IMG/VR virus record: IMGVR_UViG_2537561575_000012
Length of the DNA: 23,622 bases
Reading direction: 5' to 3' (one strand)
Source: a virus
Taxonomy: Duplodnaviria; Heunggongvirae; Uroviricota; Caudoviricetes
Part shown: positions 3,351-18,953 of the stretch, one piece after another
How the letters are laid out: every line of letters begins with the position of its first letter
How positions within the stretch are numbered: the first letter of the stretch is position 1
Position numbers and translations under genes: made by a program
The notes under the pieces: model-generated
Database searches by the model: none
Told to the model about the DNA's origin: nothing
What the model saw: only the letters and a program-made list of their open reading frames with translations

Positions 3351-4177
3351 AAGAAATGCACCACGGAATTCATCATTTCCATGGGACGCCTGTCTGGGGA
3401 AGTGCTGGCGACGTTCATCGTATTGCGGTGAGCGGAGCTGGCGCTTTCGTCTCCTATGTACGACCAGATCAGATTGCGGCGTCCATTCAGCACGCTCAGG
3501 TCGTCGGCATTGATAACGGCGCATTTTCTGCATGGGTGCGTGGGCTAAAAATTAACTGGAGTGATTTTTATAAATGGCTCCTGAACTATTACCACCATCC
3601 TAAGGTCGCTTTTTTTGTCATTCCTGATGTTGTGGACGGAGGTGAACGTGACAATGATGCCCTGATAAACGAAGTTCCGAAAATGTTCTACGGGAAGGCA
3701 ACTCCCGTCTGGCATCTGCACGAGTCAATCGATCGGCTTATCGAGCTATGTCGTGAATGGCCTCGTGTCTGCTTTGGATCGTCTGGTGAATATGCGGCTA
3801 TCAGAACTGCGCACTGGCATCGTCGTATGCAGGACGCTTTTGAAGCAATTTATTGCCGACACAATTTCAAAACAGCTGTTCATGGTTTGCGCATGCTTGA
3901 CGGTCGTGTGTTGGGAAATTACCCACTGGCGACTGCCGACAGTACAAATCTTGCCTGCAATGTCCCCAAATTTAATAGCAAATATCCTGAGCTGACGCGG
4001 GCTATTCAGGAGGCTGAGTATTCGCGCAATCTGACGGAAAAGGAGCTGAAAGCTGTCATTCTGAAAAACCGTTGCGCAATTTTAAAAGGTGCAATTGAAG
4101 CTGTTCGCCCACCTTCAGTTTCTGATTGGCTGTCGAATGGTTTGCAGCCTTCACAGCTCGAACTGGAGATTGCGTAA
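3347..4177 (+). CDS. Conserved hypothetical protein, translationally coupled between dam and the replication gene
   Basis: 276-aa ORF; GTG start at 3347 overlaps the dam stop (alternative ATG at 3356); its stop overlaps the next start (TAATG at 4175-4179). No motif I can assign with confidence. Confidence 0.6.
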
Positions 4178-6549
4178 TGAACTACAGCTATTCCTGGAAT
4201 GCTGAGAAAAAAGCAATCAATCCTTACGTAGAGACGGAAGAGCAATCTTCAGTTTCTGCGCTTTCAACCCTGATCGCTCTGTACGCTGCCGATAACGAGC
4301 AGGAACAGCTGCGCCGCGAGGCACTGAGTGATCAGGTCTGGGAGCGTTATTTCTTTAATGAATCCCGTGATCCTGTCCAGCGCGAAATGGAGCAGGATAA
4401 GCTCATTAGTCGGGCAAAGCTGGCGCATGAGCAGCAGCGTTTTAATCCAGATATGGTCATTCTGGCGGACGTTAATGCCCAGCCTTCCCATATCAGCAAG
4501 CCACTGATGCAACGTATTGAATACTTCAGCAGCCTGGGCAGGCCAAAGGCTTATTCCCGCTATTTGCGTGAGACGATTAAGCCATGTCTGGAACGGCTGG
4601 AGCATGTACGCGACTGTCAGCTATCCACTTCTTTTCGCTTTATGGCAAGCCATGAAGGGCTGGACGGCCTGCTGATCCTGCCTGAAATGAGTCAGGATCA
4701 GGTGAAACGCCTGTCCACCCTGGTAGCTGCGCATATGAGCATGTGCCTTGATGCAGCTTGTGGCGATTTGTATGTCACCGATGACGTTAAGCCAGAAGAA
4801 ATCCGCAAGACATGGGAAAAGGTGGCAGCGGAAACCCTGCGTCTGGATGTCATCCCGCCTGCGTTTGAGCAACTCCGCCGGAAAAGAAACCGCCGTAAAC
4901 CCGTGCCCTATGAACTCATTCCGGGTTCGCTGGCGCGTATGTTGTGCGCTGACTGGTGGTACCGGAAATTATGGAAGATGCGTTGCGAATGGCGGGAAGA
5001 GCAGTTGCGTGCTGTCTGCCTGGTCAGCAAAAAAGCATCTCCCTATGTCAGCTATGAAGCCGTGATGCATAAACGTGAGCAGCGCCGTAAGTCGCTGGAG
5101 TTTTTTCGTTCTCATGAACTGGTGAACGAAGACGGCGACACGCTGGACATGGAGGATGTGGTAAACGCCAGCAGCAGCAACCCTGCGCATCGCCGCAATG
5201 AGATGATGGCCTGTGTTAAAGGCCTGGAGCTTATCGCGGAAATGCGCGGTGACTGCGCCGTTTTCTACACCATCACCTGTCCGTCACGTTTCCATTCCAC
5301 GCTAAATAATGGCAGGCCCAACCCAACTTGGACAAATGCGACGGTAAGACAAAGCAGTGATTATCTGGTCGGCATGTTTGCTGCATTTCGTAAGGCGATG
5401 CACAAAGCCGGATTGCGGTGGTATGGCGTGCGGGTGGCTGAGCCGCATCATGACGGTACAGTTCACTGGCACCTGTTGTGTTTTATGCGCAAAAAAGACC
5501 GCCGCGCCATCACTGCATTACTGCGTAAGTTTGCCATCCGTGAAGACCGCGAGGAACTGGGCAATAACACTGGGCCGCGCTTTAAGTCTGAGTTGATTAA
5601 CCCGCGCAAAGGTACGCCAACAAGCTACATCGCGAAATACATCAGTAAGAACATTGACGGGCGTGGTCTGGCTGGCGAGATCAGCAAGGAAACGGGGAAA
5701 TCCCTGCGTGATAATGCTGAATACGTTAATGCCTGGGCGTCTCTGCATCGTGTTCAGCAATTCCGCTTCTTTGGCATTCCGGGGCGTCAGGCTTACCGTG
5801 AACTGCGATTGCTGGCTGGTCAGGCGGCAAGGCAACAGGGGGACAAAAAAGCAGGTGCGCCGGTACTGGATAACCCGCGCCTTGATGCCATCCTGGCTGC
5901 TGCTGATGCTGGTTGTTTTGCCACCTACATCATGAAGCAGGGCGGCGTACTGGTTCCCCGCAAATATCACCTCATCAGAACCGCTTATGAAATCAACGAA
6001 GAGCCGACCGCCTATGGCGATCACGGCATTCGTATTTATGGCATCTGGTCACCTATTGCAGAGGGCAAGATCTGCACTCATGCCGTGAAGTGGAAAATGG
6101 TTCGTAAGGCCGTTGATGTTCAGGAGGCGGCAGCCGACCAGGGCGCTTGCGCCCCTTGGACTCGTGGCAATAACTGTCCCCTTGCTGAAAATTTGAACCA
6201 ACAGGAGAAAGATAAATCAGCTGATGGGGACCCCAGAACGGACATTACCAGCATGGATGACAAGGAGTTGCACGAATACCTGCACAGTATGAGCAAAAAA
6301 GAGCGCCGGGAACTGGCAGCAAGGTTACGCCTGGTGAAACCGAAACGGCGTAAAGACTACAAACAGCGAATTACAGACCATCAGCGACTGCAGCTCGTGT
6401 ATGAGCTGAAGTCCAGAGGATTTGATGGCAGCGAGAAAGAGGTCGATTTACTCCTTCGCGGAGGCAGTATTCCGTCAGGAGCAGGCCTGCGTATCTTCTA
6501 TCGGAACCAGCGTTTGCAGGAAGATGATCAGTGGCGGAACCTGTATTAA
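4177..6549 (+). CDS. Rolling-circle replication initiation protein (P2 gpA-like, HUH endonuclease)
   Basis: ORF 4126..6549 with start at ATG 4177; motifs [14 protein letters not shown] (TVHWHLLCF) and double-tyrosine YIAKYISKN typical of phiX174/P2 gpA-type initiators. Confidence 0.8.
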
Positions 6550-6641
6550 TTACGCGGGTTAACAATTCGTACTCTTAATAATACCAGGCATATCAGGCTG
6601 ATGAACGTAAAAAATCGTTTTACATCAGTAAGATTATTATA

Positions 6642-6661
6642 TACTGTAAATATAAACAGTG
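6642..6661 (+). promoter_or_regulatory. LexA (SOS) box upstream of the small ORF/dinI-like operon
   Basis: taCTGTaaatataaACAGtg at 6642-6661 matches the LexA consensus CTGT-N8-ACAG with an AT-rich centre; about 44 bp upstream of ATG 6703. Confidence 0.6.
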
Positions 6662-6702
6662 GTTATGCATACAGCGTTGCGTGTGGTGTCATAGGAGGAA
6701 AG

Positions 6703-6891
6703 ATGCAGGACTATTTTTTGGAGTCTTTGAAGCTCCAGCGCATTGATTTTTTTCTTAAGCTTGTAGCGGCTAGTGAGTGTAGTGATGAAGAGAAGGGGCT
6801 GGCTCTGCAGTGGGTTTCTGAATTGACTGATGAACTCATGGCAAAAATCAGAACCCACGAATACAACCGCTCAATGGATGTCATCAGCTGA
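6703..6891 (+). CDS. Hypothetical 62-aa protein downstream of the LexA box
   Basis: ORF 6601..6891 trimmed to ATG 6703, preceded by AGGAGG. Position parallels the SOS-controlled operon near cos in phage 186; no sequence evidence for function. Confidence 0.5.
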   Translation: MQDYFLESLKLQRIDFFLKLVAASECSDEEKGLALQWVSELTDELMAKIRTHEYNRSMDVIS

Positions 6892-6901
6892 GGTGACTTT
6901 T

Positions 6902-7135
6902 ATGCGCATTGAAATAATGATCGATAAAGAGCAGAAGATTAGCCAGTCTACCCTGGACGCCCTTGAATCCGAGCTTTACCGCAATCTGCGCCCCCTGTAT
7001 CCCAAAACGGTAATTCGCATTCGCAAAGGTAGCTCTAACGGTGTGGAACTAACCGGACTGCAACTGGACGAAGAAAGAAAACAAGTGATGAAAATTATGC
7101 AGAAGGTGTGGGAAGACGACAGCTGGCTGCATTAA
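6902..7135 (+). CDS. dinI: DinI-family protein
   Basis: ORF 6830..7135 trimmed to ATG 6902 (GAGGTGA upstream); 77 aa. MRIEIMIDK...LDALESEL...KVWEDDSWL matches my memory of E. coli DinI (MRIEVTIAK...ALAGEL...ETWESADDW). Confidence 0.75.
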   Translation: MRIEIMIDKEQKISQSTLDALESELYRNLRPLYPKTVIRIRKGSSNGVELTGLQLDEERKQVMKIMQKVWEDDSWLH

Positions 7136-7270
7136 GAAACGTTGCTGGCGTCTGAACTTGCTTCTGGCGTCAGCAAGGTTGAACAACGAGCCCTTGCGAG
7201 GCGTTAGCTCTGTAGTGCATGTCTATGCCGCATGAGATCGCATGATCGTTTGAGGATCGTTTTTGCTAAG

Positions 7271-7295
7271 GCCCGCCAGAACTGGCGGGCTTTTG
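7271..7295 (+). terminator. Rho-independent terminator after the dinI-like gene
   Basis: GC-rich inverted repeat gcccgccag/ctggcgggc (7271-7290) followed by TTTT (7291-7294). Confidence 0.6.
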
Positions 7296-7329
7296 CGTAG
7301 ATCATGCAGGTGCATGAAAACCACTACAT

Positions 7330-7348
7330 AAAGCGGGCAGGCGTGGCG
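7330..7348. other. Candidate cos (cohesive end) site
   Basis: GGCGTGGCGGGGATACGAG; the first 13 nt match my recollection of the 186/P2 cohesive ends (GGCG[T/A]GGCGGGGAAAGCA...). Lies between the replication side and the portal side, as in P2/186. Confidence 0.45.
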
Positions 7349-7510
7349 GGGATACGAGCGCGCGTTAAGCCATATAAGAGTTATATATTGATTTGATTGC
7401 TGGACATACATACAGTATCGCTCTATCATCTAATAAATCTTAGGGTATTTGACAATGTTTGGATAAAATGGAACCTAACTTATTCATAATCCGCTAAACA
7501 GGGATGTCAG

Positions 7511-8425
7511 ATGCCATACCAATTGGTAGAGCTTAGCCCCGTAGCTAACGATCTTGAACAGTTAGGAACCAAAGAGAAGTTTTGGTTCTATTTCTCCGAT
7601 GACACTGTAAATTTGCAGTTGTTTAAGTACTCTAGGCCAGGTACTGGCGAGCATTGGTCTGAAAAGTGTGCTGCTGAGTTATGTCATTTGCTTAACATTC
7701 CACATGCTAGCTATGATTTGGCGCGATACAATGGTCGATTCGGTGTGGTGACTCAGAATATCATTCCATCTGGTTTCCGGATGGTAATGGGAAATGAAGT
7801 GCTTCACAGTTCGACATTCGATTATCCTGGGCCTTTACAAGCCGGGGAAAAGCCGGTAAGGGTCAGAGAACACACTGTCACAAGGGTCTTGGGTTGTTTA
7901 GATAGGGAATCTATCAAGCCTCCTCCGAGTGTATATGATCTAACCGGGCTAAATGCAGCAGATGTATTTTGTGGATATTTGATGCTCGATGCACTTGTGA
8001 GTAATCAAGATCGCCACCATGAAAATTGGGCAATCATGCTTAACAATGAAACTGGTGAGCAGTTTTTGTGTCCAACATACGATCATGCCGCTAGTTTAGG
8101 AAGGGAGATGTTAGATGATGAGCGTAACGAACGGCTTAATACTAAAGATAAAAATCGACAAATCCCATGTTTTGTAAGAAAAGCTCGCTCTGAGCTATTC
8201 AAAGCAAAAACTGATAAAAAGCCCTTGCTGACTGTTGAAGCATTTCAACATGCAGTTGAAGGGAGAGTTGCCGCTCGCGACCATTGGTTAGGTAAGTTGA
8301 GCGTTTTAACAGAAGATTCCATTACAGATGTGTTTAACCAAGTGCCTTCATCGTGTATATCCGACAGTGCACGTAGATTTGCAACGTTAATGGTAATGGA
8401 AAATCGCAGAAGGTTACTAGAATGA
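7511..8425 (+). CDS. HipA-like Ser/Thr kinase, C-terminal catalytic domain only (HipT-like)
   Basis: 304 aa; G-x-x-E-K loop LGTKEKF (aa 18-24), catalytic-loop-like SNQDRHHENWA (aa 164-174) and YDHAAS (aa 190-195) parallel HipA motifs; no HipA N-terminal domain; AGGGA before the ATG; stop overlaps the next start (ATGA at 8422-8425). Confidence 0.7.
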   Translation: MPYQLVELSPVANDLEQLGTKEKFWFYFSDDTVNLQLFKYSRPGTGEHWSEKCAAELCHLLNIPHASYDLARYNGRFGVVTQNIIPSGFRMVMGNEVLHSSTFDYPGPLQAGEKPVRVREHTVTRVLGCLDRESIKPPPSVYDLTGLNAADVFCGYLMLDALVSNQDRHHENWAIMLNNETGEQFLCPTYDHAASLGREMLDDERNERLNTKDKNRQIPCFVRKARSELFKAKTDKKPLLTVEAFQHAVEGRVAARDHWLGKLSVLTEDSITDVFNQVPSSCISDSARRFATLMVMENRRRLLE

Positions 8426-9162
8426 CTAATACAAACTCCGTTTACGTCGCATGGCAGGCACCAGATACCAGAGACTGGCATGTTGTTGGTAACTTGCAAG
8501 AGCGCAAATCGGGGTATGTTTTCAGGTATACCAAAGGTGCTCTTAAATCTTCTAAATTTACAAAGTTTAGCGGCATGAGTGATGTTCGTGAAACTTATGT
8601 ATCGGAAGAATTGTTTCCTCTTTTTAAAAATCGCCTTTTATCACCGAGACGTCCAGAGTATCCGAGTTTCATTAAATGGCTTGGATTTGAAGAAGATAAG
8701 GTAAATCCTATCGATATTCTTGCTCGCTCGGGAGGCTTACGAAGCACTGATCAGCTGCAGATTTTCAAAAAAATTGATTTTGATTCTGATGGTAACTTTG
8801 AGCATTTTTTCTTCTTACATGGACTTGGTTACTTGAATAGCTTAGCTAATGCTCGTGTATCTGAATTGAAACCGGGGCAAATTTTGCGTCTTTGCTTGGA
8901 TCTTCAAAATGAATACGATGGGGATGCTGTTGTCGTTCGTGCAGATAAACCAGCTGAAATCGTTGGTTACTGCCCTAGGTATTTAAGTAATGACATCAAG
9001 AAGATGTTATTGGATGATCCAAAATCAATCACTTTAACGGTCGAAAAGATTAGCGATGATGCTCCTCATAACTATCGGTTATTATGTAAATTATCAGGGG
9101 TACTAAGCCAAGCCTGTCAATCGACGCTGATTCCTCAAGATGAGTTTGAACCTATTGAGTAA
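8422..9162 (+). CDS. HipS/HipA-N-like domain fused to a C-terminal HIRAN domain
   Basis: 246 aa. N-terminal ~120 aa (VVGNL...YVFRY...LFPLFKNRLLSP...NPIDILARSGGL) resemble the HipA N-subdomain and HipS (LFPFFDGLIPEG...). C-terminal aa ~125-215 (ILRLCLDLQNEYDGDAVVVRADKPAEIVGYCPRYLSNDIKKMLLD) fit the HIRAN pattern. Confidence 0.6.
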   Translation: MTNTNSVYVAWQAPDTRDWHVVGNLQERKSGYVFRYTKGALKSSKFTKFSGMSDVRETYVSEELFPLFKNRLLSPRRPEYPSFIKWLGFEEDKVNPIDILARSGGLRSTDQLQIFKKIDFDSDGNFEHFFFLHGLGYLNSLANARVSELKPGQILRLCLDLQNEYDGDAVVVRADKPAEIVGYCPRYLSNDIKKMLLDDPKSITLTVEKISDDAPHNYRLLCKLSGVLSQACQSTLIPQDEFEPIE

Positions 9163-9171
9163 ATGAAGAAA

Positions 9172-9193
9172 AGCCACCAAACGGTGGCTTTTC
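9172..9193. terminator. Bidirectional rho-independent terminator between convergent genes
   Basis: agccacc-aaac-ggtggct hairpin (9172-9189) with a T-run after it and an A-run before it; sits in the 34-bp gap between the HIRAN gene stop (9162) and the portal stop (9197). Confidence 0.6.
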
Positions 9194-9196
9194 TTA

Positions 9197-10234
9197 TTAT
9201 GGGGCTATATCTAGCGAGTAGGTATCAAACCGTATCGCCTCCTTGCCAAGCCAATCATTCATCTCCTGTAATCGCTTTTGTAGTGGCATTAGCTCATTTC
9301 GGACGAATACACGGCTTGCCTTCTCCACATCCCCAAACCCCCCAACATTATTCGGCATAATCCCCATCATTTGCGGTGGCACACGGTGCGCTGCCATCAT
9401 GTCATCGCGGCTGACATTTTTGATATTCAGAAACTCATCCTTCGCCGCGACTTCTGACAATGGGATGATCTGAAGTCCGTCCTTTTTGCCGTTAGGCGAG
9501 TACATAAACAGATTGCGGAAGTTACCTGGTCCTTTGGCGCTTTTCATCGCGTTACGGAGGTTGTTTACATCCTCCTGGTTCTGCGCGGCGTCGGTCATGT
9601 ACATGATGAAGCCTGCATGACTGCCGTTAATGTAATACTTTCGACGGAACAGCGTGGCGGACTCGTTGAGCAGGGCTGACGGAATGGCAGAAAGATAACC
9701 AGGCAGGCCGTAGATCTCCTGGTTGATGTCCGGTTCCATCAGATGAAAAATGTTGCCTTTCGTGAACTGATACGGCTGTGTAGTCATGCCGTATTGCACA
9801 AACCAGTAGGTATCAAGGTCTAACCCGCGTCGGGTGTATTTTGCCAGTGCAGGCTCAAGGGCGATAACTTCACCGAAGCGGTTCGTGCGTTTCTCCAGGT
9901 AGGCGTTACCAAAAACCAGATAGTCCTGTACAAAACGCGAAAAAGCCTGCTGGCTGAGCAGCGGGTGAGGGATGTAGGTGCTGGTCAGAATGTTGCACTT
10001 CACTGCAATCGGTGAGCTGTGATGCACGGCGGCGCGGAAGGTTCGCGCCAGTCCGTCGAAACTCACAGGCGGCTCGTACCAACGATCCATCTGTACGCAT
10101 TCCACATAGTCCAGCAGTTCGCGGCGGTCCAGAACAGGAACGGGATCACCGAAGCTGAATGCTTCGGCTGAAGTCTGGCTTTTATGCTGGATCTGTTTCG
10201 TCGACGCAGCGCGGTTCTTCTTACTCTTTCCCAT
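9197..10234 (-). CDS. Portal protein (P2 gpQ-like)
   Basis: ORF 9197..10237 minus; start taken as ATG at 10234-10232, forming an ATGA overlap with the upstream terminase stop; about 345 aa, matching P2 Q in size and position. Confidence 0.75.
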   Translation of the reverse strand: MGKSKKNRAASTKQIQHKSQTSAEAFSFGDPVPVLDRRELLDYVECVQMDRWYEPPVSFDGLARTFRAAVHHSSPIAVKCNILTSTYIPHPLLSQQAFSRFVQDYLVFGNAYLEKRTNRFGEVIALEPALAKYTRRGLDLDTYWFVQYGMTTQPYQFTKGNIFHLMEPDINQEIYGLPGYLSAIPSALLNESATLFRRKYYINGSHAGFIMYMTDAAQNQEDVNNLRNAMKSAKGPGNFRNLFMYSPNGKKDGLQIIPLSEVAAKDEFLNIKNVSRDDMMAAHRVPPQMMGIMPNNVGGFGDVEKASRVFVRNELMPLQKRLQEMNDWLGKEAIRFDTYSLDIAP

Positions 10235-12000
10235 CAAAAAATCTCCACAATATTGCTGGTATTGGCGGACTCGCCCTGCAGCGGTTCGTTAAACAGTGCG
10301 TGCATTGTTGCCCAGGCCAGATCGGCATGGCTGGCTTCTTCGCTGCGGCTGGCTTCATAGGTCGGGCGGTTGCCACTGGCAGTGGTAGCGCGACGGATTG
10401 CCATAAATGACTGCGCAATGTCGGTGTGCCCGGCGTCAAACTCCAGACGGCGGTGGCTGATAATGTCGTAGGCCTTGAGTACCAGGGCGTTTTTAACGTT
10501 GGGGTTATAGACAAACTCCCTGACGGCAGGAAAAAACGCTTTCACGTTCTCGTAAACCCCGTGACCGACGCCGGTCGAGTCGATACCGATATAGGTCACG
10601 TTATACTGTTCGGTCAGTTTTTTGATGGCGTCAGCCTGGGCGCGGAAGTCCATCCCGCGCCACTGGTGACGCTCAAGAATGCGGAACTTACCACCCGGCA
10701 CGGCTGGCGGAGCCACCACCACGCATCCGGCACTGTCGCCGTTCTGCGTACCTTTTGCCGGGTCATAACCGATCCACACTTCGCGCCAGCCAAACGGGCG
10801 CAGGGCCAGTGCATGAAAGTCGGTCCAGACTTCCCAGCTGTCCACCATGCACGCCTGCAGTTCGCTGAGCGGGAACACGGACGCGAGATCGTCCACGAAC
10901 TCGCACATCAGCAGGTTCTGGTATTCGTCCGGGCTGTACTCCATGCGCAGCTGGTCGAGGTCGAACAGGTTACAGCCGCCGCGCACCGCATCTTCCACGG
11001 TGACTATCTGGCGGTATTGCCCGTCTGCGCACAGTAGGCCGGGGGCCAGATTGCTGTGGGACAGGTCGATGTCCACCTTGTCAGCTTTGTTGCGTCCACG
11101 GTTGAACAGCGCACCGGACCAGAACGGATAAGCACTGTGGGTCAGGCTGGATGGCGTGGAAAAATAGGTTTGTCGCCATTTCTTGTGAATAGCCATACCG
11201 GAAGCCACTTTGCGCAACTCCTGGAATTTCGGTATCCAGAAATATTCATCCAGATACAGGTTGCCGTGGTAACTCTGCGCCGTGCGGGCATTGGTGCCGA
11301 GGAAGTAAAGCGTGGCCCCGTTAGGAAGCACCATCGGATCGCCTTTCAGCTCCACCTCGACTTCTTTGGCGAAGTCGATGATGTACTGCTTAAAGACGTG
11401 AGCCTGTGCCTTACTGGCAGAAAGGAAAATCTGGTTACGTCCGGTAAGCAGGGCGTCAATCAGGGCTTCACGGGCAAAGTAAAAGGTCGCGCCGATCTGG
11501 CGTGACTTCAGCAGGTTGCGGATGCGGTTGGTTTTTCCGGCTTCCCACCAGTGGCGCTGGTAGTTGAACATGGAGGAATGGAAGATTTCTTCCAGTTTCT
11601 CTATCTGTTCATCGGTGAAAACATTCTTTTCCGGCTGACGGCGCGGGCCTTTGTTGCGGTTGGCGACGTTAGGGTTTAAGTCGGCTTCGTTGCCGCCATT
11701 GTTAAACTTGCCGATCCGCGCGTGGCGCTCCGACTGGCGCGCCAGCAGGTCAATTTCTTTGAAATCTTTCCCTTCTTTGTGCTCCTTCATAATGAGCTGG
11801 CAGTAACGTGCGGCGGTGGTGAGCTGCATCTGATCCAGCGGCCCATAGTCACCCCACTTGTCGCGTTTCTTCCAGCTGTGAACGGTTGCAACTTTCTCGC
11901 CCAGCATTTCAGCAATGCGGGCTACGCGGTATCCCTGAAAGTACAGCAGCATGGCCTGCCGACGGGGATCGAGATCTGCGGGTGTCAGTGTGGTGTTCAT
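10234..12000 (-). CDS. Terminase large (ATPase) subunit (P2 gpP-like)
   Basis: 588-aa ORF on the minus strand, divergent from the scaffold gene; N-terminal HTH-like segment; size and position match P2 P (about 590 aa). Confidence 0.75.
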   Translation of the reverse strand: MNTTLTPADLDPRRQAMLLYFQGYRVARIAEMLGEKVATVHSWKKRDKWGDYGPLDQMQLTTAARYCQLIMKEHKEGKDFKEIDLLARQSERHARIGKFNNGGNEADLNPNVANRNKGPRRQPEKNVFTDEQIEKLEEIFHSSMFNYQRHWWEAGKTNRIRNLLKSRQIGATFYFAREALIDALLTGRNQIFLSASKAQAHVFKQYIIDFAKEVEVELKGDPMVLPNGATLYFLGTNARTAQSYHGNLYLDEYFWIPKFQELRKVASGMAIHKKWRQTYFSTPSSLTHSAYPFWSGALFNRGRNKADKVDIDLSHSNLAPGLLCADGQYRQIVTVEDAVRGGCNLFDLDQLRMEYSPDEYQNLLMCEFVDDLASVFPLSELQACMVDSWEVWTDFHALALRPFGWREVWIGYDPAKGTQNGDSAGCVVVAPPAVPGGKFRILERHQWRGMDFRAQADAIKKLTEQYNVTYIGIDSTGVGHGVYENVKAFFPAVREFVYNPNVKNALVLKAYDIISHRRLEFDAGHTDIAQSFMAIRRATTASGNRPTYEASRSEEASHADLAWATMHALFNEPLQGESANTSNIVEIF

Positions 12001-12046
12001 GGCACAAACCTACAGCCTTGAATGAAGGCTTTCCCCGCCTGCGGTT

Positions 12047-12064
12047 TGTGTGGTTGTCGGTACA
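12047..12064. promoter_or_regulatory. TGT-N12-ACA dyad (Ogr/B-type late activator site) in the divergent packaging/head promoter region
   Basis: tgt-gtggttgtcggt-aca at 12047-12064, in the 142-bp region between the terminase start (12000, minus) and the scaffold start (12143, plus). P2/186/P4 late promoters carry this dyad upstream of the -35. Confidence 0.45.
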
Positions 12065-12142
12065 AATACCGCGCATTGTTTCACTGCCCCCATCACCGCA
12101 ACCATAAGGCTCCAGTAAGTTATTTCTAACGGAGCACGGCTC

Positions 12143-12976
12143 ATGACAGTGAAAGCAAAGCGTTTTCGCATCGGGGGGGAAGGTGCCACCACCGACGGAC
12201 GCGAAATCCAGCGTGAATGGCTGGAACAGATGGCAGCCAGCTACAACCCGGCGGGGTATACCGCGCTGATTAACCTTGAGCACATCAAGTCTTATCTCCC
12301 GGACAGCACCTTTAACCGTTACGGCAAGGTGACGGCGCTGTTTGCTGAAGAAATCACGGAAGGCCCGCTGGCAGGCAAGATGGCGCTGTATGCCGACGTT
12401 GAGCCAACGGAGTCCCTGGTGGAATTGGTGAAAAAAGGCCAGAAATTATTCACCTCTATGGAAGTCAGCCCGAAGTTCGCTGATACGGGCAAAGCCTACC
12501 TGGTCGGCCTGGCTGCCACTGATGACCCTGCCAGTTTGGGTACGGAAATGCTGACATTCAGCGCCAGTGCAGCCCATAACCCGCTGGCAAACCGCAAGCA
12601 GAATCCCGCCAATCTCTTTACCGCCGCAGAGGAAACGGTGATCGAACTGGAAGAAATCCAGGAGGACAAACCGTCCCTGTTTGCCCGTGTCACGGCGCTG
12701 TTTACCAAAAAAGAGCAGTCCGACGATGCCCGGTTCTCTGATGTGCATAAGGCCGTGGAGCTGGTCGCCACTGAGCAGCAAAACCTGAGCGCACGCACCG
12801 AAAAATCCCTGTCTGAGCAGGAAGAACGTCTGTCTGAGCTGGAGACTGCCCTGCAGGCACAGCAGACCGCCTTTAACGAACTGGTGGACAAGCTGAGTCA
12901 TGAAGACAGCCGCCAGGACTACCGCCAGCGTGCAACAGGCGGTAACGCCCCCGCTGACACTCTGACCAATTGCTGA
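12143..12976 (+). CDS. Capsid scaffolding protein (P2 gpO-like)
   Basis: 277 aa; first gene rightward of the divergent late promoter region; acidic, coiled-coil-rich C-terminal half; position and size as P2 O. Confidence 0.7.
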   Translation: MTVKAKRFRIGGEGATTDGREIQREWLEQMAASYNPAGYTALINLEHIKSYLPDSTFNRYGKVTALFAEEITEGPLAGKMALYADVEPTESLVELVKKGQKLFTSMEVSPKFADTGKAYLVGLAATDDPASLGTEMLTFSASAAHNPLANRKQNPANLFTAAEETVIELEEIQEDKPSLFARVTALFTKKEQSDDARFSDVHKAVELVATEQQNLSARTEKSLSEQEERLSELETALQAQQTAFNELVDKLSHEDSRQDYRQRATGGNAPADTLTNC

Positions 12977-12992
12977 TGGAGCACAAACCCCG

Positions 12993-14051
12993 ATGAAGAA
13001 GAATACCCGCTTTGCTTTTAACGCTTACCTGCAGCAGCTGGCGCGTCTGAACGGTGTGGCAGTTGAAGAACTGTCCAGCAAGTTCACCGTAGAGCCGTCC
13101 GTGCAGCAGACGCTGGAAGACCAGATCCAGCAGTCCGCCTCTTTCCTGACGCTGATTAACGTCACGCCAGTGACTGAGCAGTCTGGTCAGTTGCTGGGGC
13201 TGGGTGTTGGCAGCACCATTGCCGGAACCACTGATACCACCGCGAAAGAGCGAGAACCTGTCGATCCGACGCTGATGGTCGATGTGGAATACAAATGCGA
13301 ACAGACCAACTTTGACACGGTGCTGACCTACGCGAAGCTGGACCTGTGGGCGAAGTTTCAGGATTTCCAGGTGCGTATCCGTAACGCCATCGTGAAACGT
13401 CAGGCACTGGACCGCATCATGATCGGCTTTAACGGCGTGAAGCGTGCGAAAACCTCCAACCGTAGCGAAAACCCGCTGCTGCAGGATGTGAACAAAGGCT
13501 GGCTGCAGAAAATCCGTGAGGATGCACCGGATCACGTCATGGGCAGCACCACCACGGGCGGTGAAACCACACCGGGCGCGGTGAAAGTCGGGAAAGGTGG
13601 CGAATATGCCAACCTGGACGCCGTAGTGATGGATGCCGTCAATGAGCTTATCGACGTGGTCTACCAGGACGATGACGATCTGGTGGTGATTTGCGGTCGT
13701 GAACTGCTGTCTGACAAGTATTTCCCGCTGGTCAACAAAGAGCAGGAAAACAGTGAAAAACTGGCTGCCGATATGATCATCAGTCAGAAACGCATGGGTG
13801 GTCTGCAGGCGGTGCGTGCGCCGTTCTTCCCGCCGAATGCGCTGCTGATCACCCGTCTGGATAACCTGTCCATCTACTGGCAGGAAGATACCCGCCGCCG
13901 TTCAGTTATCGACAACCCGAAACGTGACCGGATTGAAAATTTTGAATCCGTTAACGAAGCCTATGTGGTTGAGGACTATCGCTGCGCTGCACTGGTGGAA
14001 AACATCCAGATTGGTGACTTCAGCGCCACCGCAGCAGAAACCGGAGCGTAA
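12993..14051 (+). CDS. Major capsid protein (P2 gpN-like)
   Basis: 352 aa, directly after the scaffold gene; size and order as P2 N. Confidence 0.75.
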   Translation: MKKNTRFAFNAYLQQLARLNGVAVEELSSKFTVEPSVQQTLEDQIQQSASFLTLINVTPVTEQSGQLLGLGVGSTIAGTTDTTAKEREPVDPTLMVDVEYKCEQTNFDTVLTYAKLDLWAKFQDFQVRIRNAIVKRQALDRIMIGFNGVKRAKTSNRSENPLLQDVNKGWLQKIREDAPDHVMGSTTTGGETTPGAVKVGKGGEYANLDAVVMDAVNELIDVVYQDDDDLVVICGRELLSDKYFPLVNKEQENSEKLAADMIISQKRMGGLQAVRAPFFPPNALLITRLDNLSIYWQEDTRRRSVIDNPKRDRIENFESVNEAYVVEDYRCAALVENIQIGDFSATAAETGA

Positions 14052-14054
14052 TTC

Positions 14055-14705
14055 ATGAGCCTGAGTCCCGCACGGCAGCATCGCCTGCGCGTTCAGGCTG
14101 AACAGGCCGCTCGCGAGGGTGGCAGTGTTCGCCACGCGTCGGGCTATGACCTGATGCTGCTGCAACTGGCGGAAGACCGCCGCCGTCTCAAGGGCGTTCA
14201 GTCCACGGTCAAAAAAGCGGAAATCAAGGTGGAGCTGCTGCCGAAATATGCCGCCTGGGCGGAGGGCGTTCTGGCTGCCGGAGGCGCTCAACAGGATGAC
14301 GTGCTGATGTACGTGATGCTGTGGCGCATTGATGCCGGAGATTATGCAGGGGCGCTGGAGATCGGGCGTCATGCCCTGCGTCATGGCTGGGTGATGCCGC
14401 TGGGTAACCGCAACGTGCAGACCGTGCTGGCAGAGGAAATGGCAGACGCGGCGCAGAGCGCAATGCTTGCCGCCACCGGCTTTGATGCCGATCTGTTGCT
14501 GCAGACGCTGGAGCTGGCAGACGGTCTGGATATGCCGGACCAGTCACGGGCGCGTCTGCATAAAGCGATTGGCGCTGTCCTGAGTGAAAGCAACCCGGCT
14601 TCCGCCCTTAATCATCTCAACCATGCGTTACAGCTCGATCCTCGCTGTGGCGTGAAAAAAGACAAACAGCAGCTGGAGCGCAGACTGCGCAATGACAGCC
14701 GCTGA
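14055..14705 (+). CDS. Terminase small (endonuclease) subunit (P2 gpM-like)
   Basis: 216 aa, after the capsid gene; order as P2 O-N-M. Confidence 0.65.
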   Translation: MSLSPARQHRLRVQAEQAAREGGSVRHASGYDLMLLQLAEDRRRLKGVQSTVKKAEIKVELLPKYAAWAEGVLAAGGAQQDDVLMYVMLWRIDAGDYAGALEIGRHALRHGWVMPLGNRNVQTVLAEEMADAAQSAMLAATGFDADLLLQTLELADGLDMPDQSRARLHKAIGAVLSESNPASALNHLNHALQLDPRCGVKKDKQQLERRLRNDSR

Positions 14706-14800
14706 CAGAACGTGCCCCCGCGCACGGGCGGCACGGGGTGGCGAAAGGCACTGCCACATCAAAACCCCGTCCACCGCCCTCTATTTCAGGAGAAAGCAGC

Positions 14801-15265
14801 ATGAAGTTTGTTGCGCCAGAACAGGCACCGGAACAGGCGGAAATCATCAGGAATACGCCGTTCTGGCCTGATGTGGACCTGTCGGAGTTTCGCAGCGTGA
14901 TGCGCACTGACGGCACGGTGACGCAGCCGCGTTTAAAGCAGGTTGCGCTGTCGGCAATTTCGGAGGTCAACGCAGAGCTGTATGAGTTTCGCAGACGCCA
15001 GCAGATGCTGGGGTATGCCTCGCTGGCAGAAGTTCCGGCGGAACAGCTGGACGGCAAAAGTGAGCGCATTCAGCACTATTTCAACGCGGTTTACTGCTGG
15101 GCACGCGCCATGCTCAACGAACGATACCAGGACTATGACGCCACGGCGTCCGGTGTGAAGCGGGGCGAGGAACTGGCGGAAGCAAGCGGTGATTTGTGGC
15201 GTGACGCCCGCTGGGCCATCAGCCGGGTGCAGGATGCGCCGCACTGCACAGTGGAGCTTATCTGA
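14801..15265 (+). CDS. Head completion/stabilisation protein (P2 gpL-like)
   Basis: ORF 14738..15265 trimmed to ATG 14801 (MKFVAPEQ, AGGAGA upstream); stop overlaps the next start (ATGA at 15263-15267). Confidence 0.65.
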   Translation: MKFVAPEQAPEQAEIIRNTPFWPDVDLSEFRSVMRTDGTVTQPRLKQVALSAISEVNAELYEFRRRQQMLGYASLAEVPAEQLDGKSERIQHYFNAVYCWARAMLNERYQDYDATASGVKRGEELAEASGDLWRDARWAISRVQDAPHCTVELI

Positions 15266-15468
15266 TGAAAGTGCGTGCGCATCAGTATGACACGGTGGAC
15301 GCGCTTTGCTGGCGTCATTACGGGCGCACGCAGGGGGTCACGGAGCAGGTACTGAAGGCAAATCCGGGGCTTGCCGAATACGGCCCCTTTTTACCTCACG
15401 GGCTGCAGGTGGAGCTGCCGGACATTCCGACCACCACCACCGTGCAGACCGTCCAGCTATGGGACTGA
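15265..15468 (+). CDS. Tail protein X (P2 gpX-like, LysM-like)
   Basis: 67 aa, the same length as P2 gpX; position between the head completion gene and the lysis cassette. Confidence 0.65.
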   Translation: MKVRAHQYDTVDALCWRHYGRTQGVTEQVLKANPGLAEYGPFLPHGLQVELPDIPTTTTVQTVQLWD

Positions 15469-15471
15469 ATT

Positions 15472-15687
15472 ATGACGCTTGAGCGAATCAGCGCCTTTAT
15501 CACGTATTGCATCGCCGTCGTGCTGGCCTGGCTGGGCGATTTGTCCATCAAGGATGCCTCAACGCTGGGCGGCCTGATGATTGGTGTACTGATGCTGGCT
15601 ATCAACTGGTACTACAAACACAAATCCTACCAGCTTCTGCGCGACGGGCAGATCTCGCGGGAGGACTATGAATCCATCAATCGTTAA
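15472..15687 (+). CDS. Holin (two predicted transmembrane helices)
   Basis: 71 aa with two hydrophobic segments (FITYCIAVVLAWL; LGGLMIGVLMLAINW) and a charged C-terminus; immediately upstream of the endolysin. Confidence 0.6.
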   Translation: MTLERISAFITYCIAVVLAWLGDLSIKDASTLGGLMIGVLMLAINWYYKHKSYQLLRDGQISREDYESINR

Positions 15688-16180
15688 ACGCTGCCTTGTC
15701 GGGGCCGTGCTGGCTATTGCTGCCACGCTGCCGGGTTTTCAGCAGCTTCACACCTCCGTGGAGGGGCTGAAACTGATTGCTGATTACGAAGGCTGTCGTC
15801 TGCAGCCGTATCAGTGCAGCGCGGGGGTCTGGACCGACGGCATTGGTAATACATCGGGCGTCATTCCCGGCAAAACAATCACGGAACGACAGGCAGCAGA
15901 AGGGCTGATCTCCAACGTGCTGCGTGTGGAGCGGGTACTGGAAAGGTGTGTGAAGCAACTGCCACCACAGAAGGTGTATGACGCTACGGTGTCGTTTGCC
16001 TTCAACGTGGGGACGGGCAATGCCTGCAGCTCCACGCTGGTGAAATTGCTCAATCAGCGGCGCTGGGCGGATGCGTGCCGACAGTTGCCGCGCTGGGTTT
16101 ATGTAAAAGGTGTGTTTAATCAGGGGCTGGATAACCGCCGTGCGCGGGAGATGGCCTGGTGTTTACAGGGAGCAAACTGA
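15668..16180 (+). CDS. Endolysin, phage lysozyme (GH24-like; P2 gpK-like)
   Basis: 170 aa; N-terminal signal-anchor-like segment, then GLKLIADYEGCRLQPYQCSAGVWTDGIGNT, a lysozyme-type signature; GGAGG before the ATG. Confidence 0.8.
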   Translation: MNPSIVKRCLVGAVLAIAATLPGFQQLHTSVEGLKLIADYEGCRLQPYQCSAGVWTDGIGNTSGVIPGKTITERQAAEGLISNVLRVERVLERCVKQLPPQKVYDATVSFAFNVGTGNACSSTLVKLLNQRRWADACRQLPRWVYVKGVFNQGLDNRRAREMAWCLQGAN

Positions 16181-16181
16181 A

Positions 16182-16559
16182 ATGAAAAAGAAATTAATCA
16201 GCGGACTGTTTCTGATGTTATGGATGGCGCTGTTAATCGCAGCAATGGTGTATCCGCAGGGGATTTTTCCGGTACTGGCAGCGTCCGGCGTTTGGGTAGC
16301 CTGTTTGCTGACATGGGCGGTAATTCCGGTAGCACTGGCTGCGTTAATTAAGAATGGCCCGCTCTGGCAGGAGTTAAGGGCATCTTTACTGAAGACAATT
16401 ACCCGAAAAGAAAACGTATTTATCAGTTGGGTGATGCGATTGCTGATTGTTGTAAGTCTCGCCTGGACGGGGTGGGCTATTACCCTGGTCTTTTATCTAC
16501 TGACCGTTATTGCCTTCTGGATCACCCGTAATCAGATGGCGAAACAGGTAGCAGCATGA
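16182..16559 (+). CDS. LysA-like membrane protein (lysis timing)
   Basis: ORF 16110..16559 trimmed to ATG 16182 (MKKKLISGLF); several hydrophobic helices; position as P2 lysA. Confidence 0.5.
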   Translation: MKKKLISGLFLMLWMALLIAAMVYPQGIFPVLAASGVWVACLLTWAVIPVALAALIKNGPLWQELRASLLKTITRKENVFISWVMRLLIVVSLAWTGWAITLVFYLLTVIAFWITRNQMAKQVAA

Positions 16560-16984
16560 ACCGGTTGCTGCTGGTTGTGCTGGCGTTATTACTGGCGGCG
16601 CTGGGCTGGCAGACGTGGCGGCTGGCTGATGCCAGCCAGACCATCAGCACGCAGGCAGACGAGCTGCAGAGCAAAAGCCAGGCACTGGCAAAGAGCAACA
16701 GCCAGCTTATCAGCCTGTCCATTCTGACTGAAACCAATAACCGGGAGCAGGCGCGGCTCTATGCCGAAGCAGAACAGACCAGCACGCTGCTGAGACAACG
16801 ACAACACCGGATCGAGGAACTGAAACGTGAGAACGAGGATTTACGCCGCTGGGCTGATACTCCTTTGCCTGCTGACATTATCCGGCTGCGGAAACGTCCG
16901 GCACTCACCGGAGGTATGGCTTACCGTCAGTGGTTGTCCGCGAGTGACGCCGTGTCGGCTGGATCAGGCAACGCCGCGCACTAA
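16556..16984 (+). CDS. i-spanin (Rz-like, P2 LysB-like)
   Basis: 142 aa; N-terminal transmembrane segment (LLLVVLALLLAALGW) followed by a coiled-coil-rich periplasmic domain; contains the embedded o-spanin ORF. Confidence 0.6.
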   Translation: MNRLLLVVLALLLAALGWQTWRLADASQTISTQADELQSKSQALAKSNSQLISLSILTETNNREQARLYAEAEQTSTLLRQRQHRIEELKRENEDLRRWADTPLPADIIRLRKRPALTGGMAYRQWLSASDAVSAGSGNAAH

Positions 16985-17117
16985 CGGTGATCTGAACGCG
17001 TTGCTGGATGAAACGGAGGCCGCCTGGGCGGTCTGTGCAGACAAAGTGGACATGATTATTGCGTGTCAGGAGCGAAACAGTGAACAAACCACAATCCCTG
17101 CGCCACGCCCTCAATAA
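16827..17117 (+). CDS. o-spanin lipoprotein (Rz1-like, P2 LysC-like), embedded in and extending beyond the i-spanin gene
   Basis: 96 aa in an alternative frame overlapping the 3' end of the i-spanin gene; lipobox LTLSGC near the N-terminus. Confidence 0.55.
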   Translation: MRTRIYAAGLILLCLLTLSGCGNVRHSPEVWLTVSGCPRVTPCRLDQATPRTNGDLNALLDETEAAWAVCADKVDMIIACQERNSEQTTIPAPRPQ

Positions 17118-17511
17118 AGCGGTGCCTTATGTCCGCAATAACCCGGACAAACTGCATCTGTTTGTGGATAACGGTTCGCTGGTTGCCACGGGGGCCAGCT
17201 CCATGTCGTGGGAGTACCGTTACACACTGAACGCGGTGATTGAGGATTTCAGCGGCGACCAGAATCTGCTGATGGCCCCGGTTTTGCTGTGGCTGAGGGA
17301 TAACCAGCCCGATGCCATCAATAACCCGGCGTTACGGGAAAAGCTATTCACCTTTGAGGTGGATATTCTGCGCAACGATGTCTGTGATATCAGCCTGAAC
17401 CTGCAACTGACGGAACGTGTGCTGGTCAGCACTGACGGCAGTGTGTCGAGCGTTGAAGCTATAGCGGAACCTGATGCACCTGAAGAAATGTGGACGGTGA
17501 AACGTGGCTGA
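17080..17511 (+). CDS. Tail completion protein (P2 gpR-like)
   Basis: ORF 17059..17511; start taken at GTG 17080 with AGGAG at 17068-17072; N-terminus ...SLRHALNKAVPYVRNNPDKLHLFVDNGSLVA resembles my memory of P2 R. Confidence 0.65.
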   Translation: MNKPQSLRHALNKAVPYVRNNPDKLHLFVDNGSLVATGASSMSWEYRYTLNAVIEDFSGDQNLLMAPVLLWLRDNQPDAINNPALREKLFTFEVDILRNDVCDISLNLQLTERVLVSTDGSVSSVEAIAEPDAPEEMWTVKRG

Positions 17512-17950
17512 ACTGCAGAAGGTGGACGACTGGCTGAGTGCCTTGCTGGCGAATCTGGAACCAGCCTCGAGAAGCCGCATGATGCGCCAGCTGGCGCAGG
17601 AACTTCGCCGGACACAGCAGCAGAATATCAGGATGCAGCGCAACCCTGACGGCAGCAGCTATGAACCGCGACGGGTAACAGCACGCAGTAAAAAAGGCCG
17701 TATCAAACGTCAGATGTTTGCAAAGCTGCGCACCACAAAATACCTGAAAACTGCCGCCAGCACCGACTCTGCCAGCGTGCAGTTTGAAGGCAAGGTGCAG
17801 CGCATTGCCCGCGTTCACCATTACGGCCTGCGAGATCGCGTCAGTCGTAAGGGACCGGAGGTGCGTTACGCAGAGCGTCGCCTTCTGGGTGTAAATGATG
17901 ATGTTGAGGCAATGACCCGCGACATGATTCTGCAATGGCTGGCGGGGTGA
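17504..17950 (+). CDS. Tail completion/virion morphogenesis protein (P2 gpS-like)
   Basis: 148 aa; overlaps the R stop; size and position as P2 S. Confidence 0.65.
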   Translation: MAELQKVDDWLSALLANLEPASRSRMMRQLAQELRRTQQQNIRMQRNPDGSSYEPRRVTARSKKGRIKRQMFAKLRTTKYLKTAASTDSASVQFEGKVQRIARVHHYGLRDRVSRKGPEVRYAERRLLGVNDDVEAMTRDMILQWLAG

Positions 17951-17953
17951 TCT

Positions 17954-17971
17954 TTGTATCAGCACTGATAC
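17954..17971. promoter_or_regulatory. TGT-N12-ACA dyad upstream of the baseplate operon (late promoter activator site)
   Basis: tgt-atcagcactgat-aca at 17954-17971, a perfect inverted repeat (ttgtatca/tgatacaa) in the gap between S (ends 17950) and V (starts 18019). Confidence 0.5.
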
Positions 17972-18018
17972 AAGTTGCAGCACTGCCGCCTTTCTTCCCC
18001 TGATGGCAACCTTTCCCT

Positions 18019-18597: not shown

Positions 18598-18953
18598 CGC
18601 TTTATAGCGGGATGAACAATACCAGCGGCAAAGTCATTACTGATATTGATCATCTGCGCCAGTCGGTGCGGGACATTCTGCTGACACCGCAGGGTAGCCG
18701 TATTGCCCGCCGGGAATATGGTTCCCTGCTGTCGGCACTGATAGATCAGCCACAAAATCCGGCATTACGCCTGCAGGTCATGTCGGCAGTGTATGTGGCG
18801 CTGAGTCGCTGGGAGCCACGGTTGACGCTGGATTCCATCACCATCAACAGCAATTTTGACGGTTCAATGGTGGTGGAGCTGACCGGGCGGCGGAATAACG
18901 GTGTGCCTGTGTCCCTTTCCGTATCAACAGGAGCAGAGAATGGCAGTGATTGA
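18594..18953 (+). CDS. Baseplate protein W (gp25-like)
   Basis: 119 aa; overlaps the V stop and precedes J; size and position as P2 W. Confidence 0.75.
   Translation: MTLYSGMNNTSGKVITDIDHLRQSVRDILLTPQGSRIARREYGSLLSALIDQPQNPALRLQVMSAVYVALSRWEPRLTLDSITINSNFDGSMVVELTGRRNNGVPVSLSVSTGAENGSD

Follow-up and report, generated by a model that had tools for sequence, protein, structure and literature searches.

Does the AT-rich DNA between the replication gene and the portal gene of this phage move as one foreign island? The window that we analysed, a 23,622-nucleotide stretch of viral DNA (Caudoviricetes), had been predicted to contain at 6550-9196 a horizontally exchanged hotspot around cos. Every feature listed in the original prediction (a LexA box, a 62-aa open reading frame, a DinI-like gene, a terminator, a cos-like sequence and a kinase/HIRAN cassette) was located. 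The interval is a composite, not a single island. We read it, with a probability of about 0.85, as the cos-proximal accessory region between genes A and Q of a Fels-2/186-type P2-like (Peduoviridae) prophage, a published exchange hotspot consisting of an SOS operon, a first insertion slot (slot 1), cos and a second slot (slot 2). The rest of the window corresponds to a P2-type late operon.

Base composition and codon usage of the interval

The GC content of 6550-9196 is 0.424, whereas the window as a whole has 0.517, gpA 0.529 and the late genes (9197-21677) 0.562. Sliding-window analysis of the entire sequence places the start of the lowest-GC 2647-bp window at 6564, with only 0.25% of windows of this length having a GC content this low. 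The claimed AT-richness is thus borne out, this being the lowest 2.6-kb stretch in the window. The lowest-GC 1.8-kb window begins at 7370. Codon usage was also expected to distinguish the interval, and it does so for the kinase and HIRAN genes, which appear foreign in both third-position GC (GC3 of 0.37 and 0.33) and codon choice (log-likelihood ratios of -0.28 and -0.24). Conversely, dinI is core-like (GC3 0.56, ratio +0.31) and orf62 has a GC3 of 0.52, similar to the 0.57 of gpA, with a ratio of -0.01.

Low GC need not point to a foreign origin and could merely reflect promoters, small genes and regulatory DNA. This is a fair description of 6550-6702, an intergenic region with a GC content of 0.36 that carries a promoter and an operator, and GC-poor early genes are found elsewhere in the same phage (apl/cox, 0.44; DUF5347, 0.43). 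The same explanation is contradicted for 7366-9270: 1.65 kb of the trough is coding, with a GC3 of 0.33-0.37 versus 0.55-0.74 in the late genes, and the cassette it encodes has a lower GC content than its surroundings in five further genomic contexts and is missing from 98% of related prophages. For the interval as a whole we consider this explanation very improbable.

A conserved backbone from gpA to cos

The left anchor of the region is the conserved replication endonuclease gene gpA (4177-6549, plus strand; Pfam Phage_GPA at 4126-6549, 5.2e-128), whose 3' end (5600-6549) is present in 1,297 of 5,426 complete E. coli genomes. It is followed by a predicted p95-like promoter at 6619-6660 on the plus strand (TTTACA, 17-nt spacer, TACTGT; hexamers read from the sequence). 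A single perfect LexA box, TACTGTAAATATAAACAGT, overlaps the -10 element at 6642-6660 and is the sole site in the window against 0.15 expected; the layout agrees with the annotated p95/LexA site of phage 186. The first gene of the operon is the conserved small gene orf62 (6703-6891, plus strand; 62 aa; phrog_698, 3.6e-38), annotated in relatives as WP_001154434, followed by the DinI-like gene (6902-7135, plus strand; Pfam DinI, 6.6e-23). The operon ends at a Rho-independent terminator hairpin (7268-7294, plus strand; -27.9 kcal/mol, z -5.6), the stem of which is conserved in relatives and the 186 equivalent of which, t95b, is annotated at the corresponding position.

This arrangement resembles the SOS operon of 186 (p95, LexA site, tum, t95b) in having a LexA box over the -10 element, a DinI-like product and a terminator ahead of cos, and in its location behind gene A. 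The DinI-like product is 41% identical to residues 71-145 of 186 Tum (E 3e-24). Unlike in 186, where Tum is one 146-aa protein, two genes are found here: homology is confined to the DinI-like C-terminal half, and no counterpart of the N-terminal (antirepressor) half of Tum was found. We considered orf62 as the missing half and rejected it, as BLASTP gave no similarity between its product and 186 Tum. By analogy with 186 Tum, the SOS operon (6619-7294), presumably repressed by LexA, may link prophage behaviour to DNA damage.

The packaging site cos occupies 7300-7365 and comprises a conserved left arm, a 19-nt cohesive-end sequence and CGCGCG, identified by homology to 186 cos, whose annotated sequence aligns over 7274-7352 at 80%. 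The 19-mer GGCGTGGCGGGGATACGAG (7340-7358) is the predicted site of cleavage. Across 15 relatives from E. coli, Klebsiella, Salmonella, Yersinia and Pectobacterium, cos is near-invariant and all similarity ends past 7364-7370.

Altogether, 1,281 of the 5,426 complete E. coli genomes contain 6550-7380, a frequency close to that of gpA and of the portal gene segment 9300-10234 (1,268). The segment 6550-7365, with its LexA box, orf62, dinI, terminator and cos, is therefore a conserved lineage backbone, kept in relatives at 95-99% identity beside at least 10 different cargos. It had been thought that the interval holds only accessory functions; cos is instead the site of packaging, and practically every close relative retains the LexA/orf62/DinI unit. 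In more distant phages (P2, 186 and a Pectobacterium prophage) the orf62/dinI unit varies too, so that "accessory" is defensible at the family level only. Nor is the interval bounded by terminators on both sides, since the gpA end shows no terminator-like signal (fold of 6530-6610, z +0.54, and none in a separate scan) and the left hairpin is the internal one at 7268-7294.

These observations bear on whether the whole of 6550-9196 could be one foreign island moving as a unit. GC does lie below the flanks across the entire interval, P2 and 186 do hold different genes between A and cos at the family level, and dinI is absent from a Pectobacterium relative and from E. coli EC19. Movement as a unit is nonetheless difficult to reconcile with a left part found beside so many cargos and in 1,281 genomes versus 21 for the cargo, with the core-like GC3 and codon usage of dinI, with the presence of an essential site, cos, and with the junction map given below, which contradicts it. 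We find this possibility highly unlikely and retain the composite reading.

The backbone itself contains a second variable insertion point. Slot 1, between dinI and the terminator (7136-7216), is empty here and filled with 0.77-3.2 kb in CFSAN061772, BL21, Kp 4LV2017, Fels-2, 23CRST010 and EC19; the content is an HNH endonuclease in 23CRST010 and an HsdR-N protein in EC19. The 186 counterpart of slot 1 holds orf97, the downstream sequence of which matches 7177-7208. CFSAN061772 carries the same slot 2 cargo as the present phage together with a filled slot 1, suggesting that the two slots assort independently.

Junctions of the exchanged block

Slot 2 holds a cargo block (7366 to about 9270, GC 0.41) that is exchanged among close relatives. 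We found this cargo in 21 of the 5,426 complete E. coli genomes, each time next to a portal gene. Alignment with 12 relatives carrying other or no cargo gave a common left junction at 7364-7370, 6 nt past the cos 19-mer, and a right junction at 9205-9278, with flanks at 90-99% identity. The right junction lies within the last ~25 codons of the conserved right anchor, portal gene Q (9197-10234, minus strand; Pfam Phage_portal at 9197-10237, 1.1e-19). Other AT-rich cargo (GC 0.33-0.39) is present in 11 of the 12 relatives, and the alternative slot 2 cargo includes retron St85/Ec86, TIR, Abi-alpha/AIPR, KAP NTPase and Hypoth_Ymh as well as unknowns. In Yersinia phage MLG42 the slot is empty, with 183 bp at a GC content of 0.61.

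The alignment thus supports the prediction of a horizontally exchanged hotspot around cos: the locus matches the published gpA-gpQ hotspot, breakpoints are conserved and content is not identical across relatives. The boundaries require correction. The swapped block extends from 7366 to 9205-9278 instead of covering 6550-9196, with 6550-7365 retained beside different cargos, and on the right the exchange reaches up to ~80 bp beyond 9196, into the 3' end of Q. This 3' end (9197-9270, minus strand; the last ~25 codons) is AT-rich, variable and swapped with the cargo, homology resuming at 9205-9278. The C-termini of Q differ cargo by cargo while remaining diverged but homologous tails, and the last 75 nt of Q have a GC content of 0.23-0.45 in cargo-bearing relatives versus 0.57 at the empty Yersinia site.

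A left junction exact to a few nucleotides is what a site-specific event predicts, raising the possibility of an insertion by transposition or site-specific integration. We searched the region for signatures of such events and found no direct repeats flanking the cargo, no recombinase or transposase ORF in 6300-9400 and no tRNA in or beside the cargo; the only inverted repeats were the terminator stem and a chance 20-mer. The right junction, conversely, is spread over ~70 bp within homologous coding sequence, and each cargo has its own diverged but homologous Q tail, as crossovers in homologous DNA produce. Insertion by transposase or integrase is accordingly improbable. Phages that are otherwise nearly identical differ in their slot 2 cargo, and the positions of the junctions suggest homologous recombination as the likely route of replacement: the left crossover would fall in the terminator-cos block and the right one in Q. 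In line with the proposal of Rousset et al., DNA ends close by may stimulate such recombination.

The P2-like hotspot as such has reportedly an earlier account, by Odegrip and colleagues in 2006, which both Rousset and Vassallo cite. The cos-proximal gpA-gpQ hotspot of P2-like phages is published (Rousset 2022, PMC9122126; Vassallo 2022, PMC9519451) and is also covered by an NAR 2026 survey (PMC13586616). The present locus shares with the Rousset hotspot its gpA and gpQ anchors, cos adjacency, high turnover among near-identical phages and dominance of defence-type cargo, and does not differ from it in any essential respect. What our analysis adds is resolution: slots on both sides of an invariant terminator-cos block, a left junction at cos plus 6 nt and a right junction in the last ~25 codons of Q. 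Non-essential AT-rich genes also lie between gene A and the portal gene in P2 (tin and old) and in 186 (orf97), all three annotated for phage exclusion. In P2 and 186, however, the cargo lies left of cos, on the slot 1 side, with only 187-196 bp between cos and Q, whereas here it lies to the right.

Loci of this type are already catalogued, as are their adjacency to cos, their role as anti-phage reservoirs and the presence of this cassette at this locus. As a discovery the prediction therefore matters little, being a correct rediscovery with wrong boundaries. Its practical use lies in the corrected exchange unit, from cos plus 6 nt to inside the Q 3' end, in the location of a second slot left of cos and in flagging the cassette as a candidate anti-phage system. 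The junction coordinates can also serve as exact anchors when short contigs are mined for cargo.

A more speculative reading, with clearly less than even odds, is that the gpA-gpQ hotspot may consist of two independent slots plus portal-tail swapping and, separately, that the kinase/HIRAN pair in slot 2, hipIN (see below), could act as a DNA-end sensor. The two slots may be separated by the invariant terminator-cos block of ~150 bp, and in the right slot each cargo may be accompanied by an AT-rich Q end (last ~25 codons) of its own. If so, a swap of defence cargo would also swap the portal C-terminus.

The kinase/HIRAN cassette

The cargo forms a self-contained operon of two genes, equipped with a predicted promoter and a bidirectional terminator. 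The promoter-like site (TGGACA, 17-nt spacer, TATCAT; 7401-7429, plus strand; 10/12 in a consensus scan) precedes a gene for a 304-aa HipI-like short Ser/Thr kinase of the HipA family (7511-8425, plus strand; PADLOC PDC-M03A, 2.1e-122). The second gene (8422-9162, plus strand; Pfam HIRAN, 1e-13; PDC-M03B, 6.8e-93) starts 4 nt inside the end of the kinase gene and encodes a HipN-like protein of 246 aa. Both PADLOC profiles are matched over their full length by these adjacent overlapping genes. The hairpin at 9166-9195 would terminate the cargo operon on the plus strand and the Q-P operon on the minus strand; it folds on both (-21.0/-20.4 kcal/mol, z -5.3 and -6.8) and occupies the place of P2 tQ and 186 tW. 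The only structured RNA match in the region, to the Brucella sRNA BSnc120 over this hairpin, is below threshold (36 vs 114 bits) and was dismissed as a hairpin artefact.

A PDB sequence search with both cassette proteins returned nothing significant, and fold searches were therefore needed. The kinase, which matches Pfam HipA_C below threshold (20.7 vs a gathering cutoff of 30.5 bits), has a predicted structure (pLDDT 83.8) whose fold matches CtkA (TM 0.68-0.74), HipA and HipT. All 32 homologues compared share its residues G19-T-K-E-K23, D167-R-H-H-E-N172 and Y190-D-H192. The HipN-like protein combines an N-terminal domain resembling HipS and the HipA N-subdomain with a C-terminal HIRAN domain, a type of domain that binds DNA ends, and its predicted structure (pLDDT 88.7) matches HLTF HIRAN structures and HipA 3tpd (prob 0.96). 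The HipS-like assignment is suggested by this one structural match and by weak Couple_hipA matches in 25 of 32 homologues (best 7e-4), weak but consistent signals.

This gene pair matches the PADLOC candidate PDC-M03 and the "HIRAN-kinase" of Rousset 2022 (PMC9122126, Table S6), and it probably corresponds to hipIN, described as the HipI kinase plus HipN, a HipS-like/HIRAN protein (Gerdes 2021). Like hipIN, it has a short kinase (279-321 aa in that study) without HipA N-subdomain 1, a Gly-rich loop near the N-terminus, an intact catalytic loop and a downstream HipS-like plus HIRAN gene. Table S5A of Rousset 2022 (PMC9122126) lists WP_001146828 and WP_000185756. Both proteins belong to the cassette of CFSAN061772, which matches 7380-9200 at 100% DNA identity. 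The HipAD/DS-6 entry of DefensePredictor also belongs to the HipA family but is another system.

Gerdes 2021, the source of the DNA-end-sensing hypothesis, classes hipIN as a putative toxin-antitoxin (TA) module within clade XI, for which it lists no experimentally analysed module. We found no experiments in the searched literature that tested hipIN, HIRAN-kinase or PDC-M03 for defence or TA activity. The pair could be a prophage-stabilising addiction module or a persistence module and not an anti-phage system: HipA-family kinases are classical TA toxins, the 4-nt gene overlap is typical of TA pairs, and the cassette is also found alone between housekeeping genes. On the other hand, the known occupants of the slot are mostly defence systems and the cassette is in the PADLOC candidate defence set; TA activity and abortive-infection defence are, moreover, not mutually exclusive. 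We consider a pure addiction or persistence role unlikely, though less so than the alternatives discussed above.

As an anti-phage system, the cassette would most likely act through its kinase. The HipS-like domain would keep the kinase inactive, and binding of the 3' ends or single-stranded DNA of an infecting phage by HIRAN would release it. An essential translation factor would be the target of the freed kinase, its phosphorylation leading to abortive infection and protecting the lysogen population. The hipIN cargo lies 6 nt from the phage's own DNA end and could be a DNA-end sensor; if so, it must tell foreign ends from its own cos ends, for example 3' ends or single-stranded DNA from P2-type 5' overhangs. 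The pairing of a HipA-family kinase with HIRAN, if validated, would represent a DNA-end-triggered kinase defence.

Comparison of the cargo DNA with a phage collection gave only an 84-bp match in Vibrio elements and no phage record with the cassette. The gene pair stands by itself in an E. coli island, a Proteus chromosome and a V. cholerae chromosome, and P2-like prophages of Klebsiella and Pectobacterium carry it in the same slot as here. Divergence of the cassette in Klebsiella prophage L026 equals that of the backbone (77-80%), suggesting that the association there is old and vertical rather than recently swapped.

Composition of the gpA-portal interval

The window, a P2-like (Peduoviridae) prophage, begins with an early region (CI/Apl/CII), a dam methylase and gpA (4177-6549), and the portal gene Q (9197-10234, minus strand) is followed by terminase P, capsid, lysis and tail genes. 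The original prediction held that positions 6550-9196 form an AT-rich cargo island around cos, with terminators on both sides, that is exchanged horizontally. The AT-richness was borne out: GC content is 0.424 in this segment against 0.517 for the window, 0.529 for gpA and 0.562 for the late genes, and the lowest-GC stretch of 2647 bp in the sequence starts at 6564. The corresponding minimum for 1831 bp starts at 7370, and a dip at 6550-6702 (0.36) coincides with the intergenic promoter-operator region. The immunity region (positions 1-1000), containing a CI repressor fragment and an Apl/Cox-like gene, is GC-poor as well (0.33-0.40); low GC by itself is no marker of cargo in this phage.

Each feature named for the island is present, namely a perfect and unique LexA box (6642-6660), a 62-aa ORF (orf62, 6703-6891, phrog_698), a DinI-like gene (6902-7135), a strong hairpin (7268-7294), a cos-like 19-mer (7340-7358), a kinase gene (7511-8425), a HIRAN gene (8422-9162) and a second hairpin (9166-9195) that folds equally on both strands. 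Terminators on both sides hold for the kinase/HIRAN cargo but not for 6550-9196, whose gpA end has no terminator-like structure. We scored synonymous codon choice gene by gene as a leave-one-out log-likelihood ratio of core versus cargo: core genes score +0.23 to +0.60, the kinase and HIRAN genes -0.28 and -0.24. The dinI gene is core-like (+0.31), and orf62 scores -0.01. GC content at third codon positions is 0.52 for orf62 and 0.56 for dinI, similar to gpA (0.57), while the values for the kinase (0.37) and HIRAN (0.33) genes are remote from all core genes (late genes 0.55-0.74). The segment is therefore a composite of two gene classes set apart by GC3 and codon choice.

The left class resembles the SOS operon of phage 186. 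Its putative promoter (TTTACA-17-TACTGT), with a -10 element overlapped by the LexA box, is laid out like the annotated p95 of 186. Residues 71-145 of 186 Tum share 41% identity with the DinI-like product, orf62 has no detectable relationship to the N-terminal half of Tum, and the hairpin at 7268-7294 is the positional counterpart of 186 t95b. The left module is homologous to the 186 SOS operon and belongs to the lineage backbone. It differs in P2 and 186 and is incomplete in the relative EC19 and in a Pectobacterium prophage.

Exchange between cos and the portal gene

A megablast search with 5500-10300 returned 74 phage records, with query coverage never above ~60%; in all of them similarity extends from gpA to cos and picks up again at the portal gene, and the intervening genes differ. 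Among 5,426 complete E. coli genomes, the gpA 3' end (5600-6549), the left segment (6550-7380) and portal Q (9300-10234) were matched in 1,297, 1,281 and 1,268 genomes, respectively, and the cargo (7380-9200) in 21, the portal gene adjoining it every time. In carriers of a 99-100% identical cassette, the portal segment is just 96-98% identical to that of the window, which suggests mosaicism of cargo and backbone even among carriers.

We then retrieved 13 related loci and mapped their alignment ends onto the window. In all 12 loci with other content, similarity ends at 7364-7370 and resumes at 9205-9278, so that the breakpoints are conserved and alternative cargo occupies the same site, here termed slot 2 (7366 to ~9270). 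On the left, the multiple alignment runs through a near-invariant block (...ATGCAGGTGCATGAAAACCACTACATAAAGCGGGCA-GGCGTGGCGGGGATACGAG-CGCGCG) into total divergence. The alternative cargos, all with a GC content of 0.33-0.39, comprise a 469-aa protein with no assigned function, retron St85/Ec86 (in BL21(DE3) and Klebsiella phage 4LV2017), a Hypoth_Ymh protein, TIR proteins, Abi-alpha/AIPR, a KAP-type P-loop NTPase, a 565-aa protein in Fels-2 and small proteins with no assigned function. In Yersinia phage MLG42 the site is empty (183 bp, GC 0.61), and P2 and 186 resemble it in having merely 187-196 bp from cos to the portal stop.

The right junction is inside Q. In every relative with cargo, the 3' end of the gene (9197-9270) is AT-rich and hypervariable: the last ~25 codons keep a homologous pattern but differ in sequence with each cargo type, and the last 75 nt have a GC content of 0.23-0.45 with cargo versus 0.57 at the empty Yersinia site. 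Swapping cargo therefore also swaps the portal C-terminus, and the exchanged block passes the predicted right edge by at most ~80 bp. Exchange at this site thus stands, but the predicted left boundary lies too far out and the right one falls slightly short.

Direct repeats, a recombinase, a transposase and a tRNA were all sought in the slot 2 region and not found. The left junction adjoins the near-invariant block of ~100-150 bp, and the right junctions vary in position within ~70 bp of homologous coding sequence. Such a pattern fits a double crossover between related phages, which is the probable route of exchange; nearby cohesive ends have been suggested to stimulate such recombination (Rousset et al., 2022, PMC9122126).

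The hotspot reading agrees with published work. The same study identifies the locus as a hotspot and counts 1,650 gene arrangements among 18,150 E. coli loci, and the hotspot was confirmed by Vassallo et al. (2022, PMC9519451) and a 2026 NAR survey (PMC13586616), whose set comprises ~8,000 P2-like prophages. The original prediction, made without tools, correctly rediscovered a known hotspot; the remaining value lies in the candidate kinase/HIRAN system and the fine structure of the junctions. Table S5A of Rousset et al. lists WP_001146828 and WP_000185756 with WP_001154434 (orf62) and a DinI protein. The former pair is encoded by the cassette of the relative CFSAN061772, which at the DNA level is 100% identical to 7380-9200; two places in that genome match the cassette. 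Their Table S6 calls a Vibrio homologue "HIRAN-kinase".

The kinase/HIRAN cassette

Both cassette genes have full-length matches to the PADLOC candidate system PDC-M03 (2e-122 and 7e-93). The kinase was modelled with a pLDDT of 83.8, and its fold can be superposed on HipA, HipT and H. pylori CtkA (TM 0.68-0.74 for CtkA). Three of its motifs do not vary among 32 homologues (down to 57% identity): the Gly-rich loop GTKEK (19-23), the catalytic loop DRHHEN (167-172) and YDH (190-192). In the model of the second protein (pLDDT 88.7), the C-terminal part (residues ~125-246) adopts a HIRAN fold matching HLTF HIRAN-DNA complexes; for the N-terminal domain there are weak Couple_hipA matches in 25 of the 32 homologues and a structural match to HipA. 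The pair has the hipIN architecture (HipI kinase with a HipS-like/HIRAN protein, HipN) of Gerdes et al. (2021), who proposed without experiments that HIRAN senses the DNA ends of an invading phage, releasing the kinase for abortive infection. Our literature search found no experimental test of the cassette.

The two genes form a mobile unit. P2-like prophages of Klebsiella and Pectobacterium have it in the same cos-Q slot, and it occurs alone in an E. coli island, next to a primase and a two-partner secretion locus, in Proteus, where asd and gyrB flank it, and in V. cholerae, with housekeeping genes on either side. Its GC content is below that of its flanks in all contexts but AT-rich Proteus. 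In the contigs of E. coli, Proteus penneri and Vibrio cholerae the insertion consists of these two genes alone and is not part of a phage; they encode ~302-310 aa and 246-247 aa and overlap in every case.

Slot 1 and further candidate variable sites

A separate site, slot 1, lies left of cos and extends from the end of dinI to about 7216, at the position equivalent to 186 orf97 and on the same side as P2 tin and old. The window holds only ~80 bp here, part of which matches DNA downstream of 186 orf97, and the slot is empty. Relatives hold 0.77-3.2 kb, including an HNH endonuclease, an HsdR-N-domain protein, an orf97-sized gene (Fels-2) and a 176-aa ORF (CFSAN061772). Since CFSAN061772 shares the slot 2 cargo of the window and has slot 1 filled, the two slots assort independently.

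Between dam and gpA, a 273-aa ORF (3356-4177) with no match in Pfam or PADLOC is shared by the window, CFSAN061772 and PO06101; most other relatives lack it and have dam directly next to gpA. The position has the look of a third variable site of the lineage.

At the other end of the window, a 179-nt inverted repeat (21490-21668 and 23183-23361, 98% complementary) encloses a 1.5-kb low-GC segment, which accounts for the second GC trough of the window. The window contains no invertase gene. The segment encodes a tail-fibre assembly gene on the plus strand and, in the opposite orientation, another assembly gene and a Collar-domain tail-fibre C-terminus, and looks like an invertible host-range switch of the Mu G-segment or P1 C-segment type.
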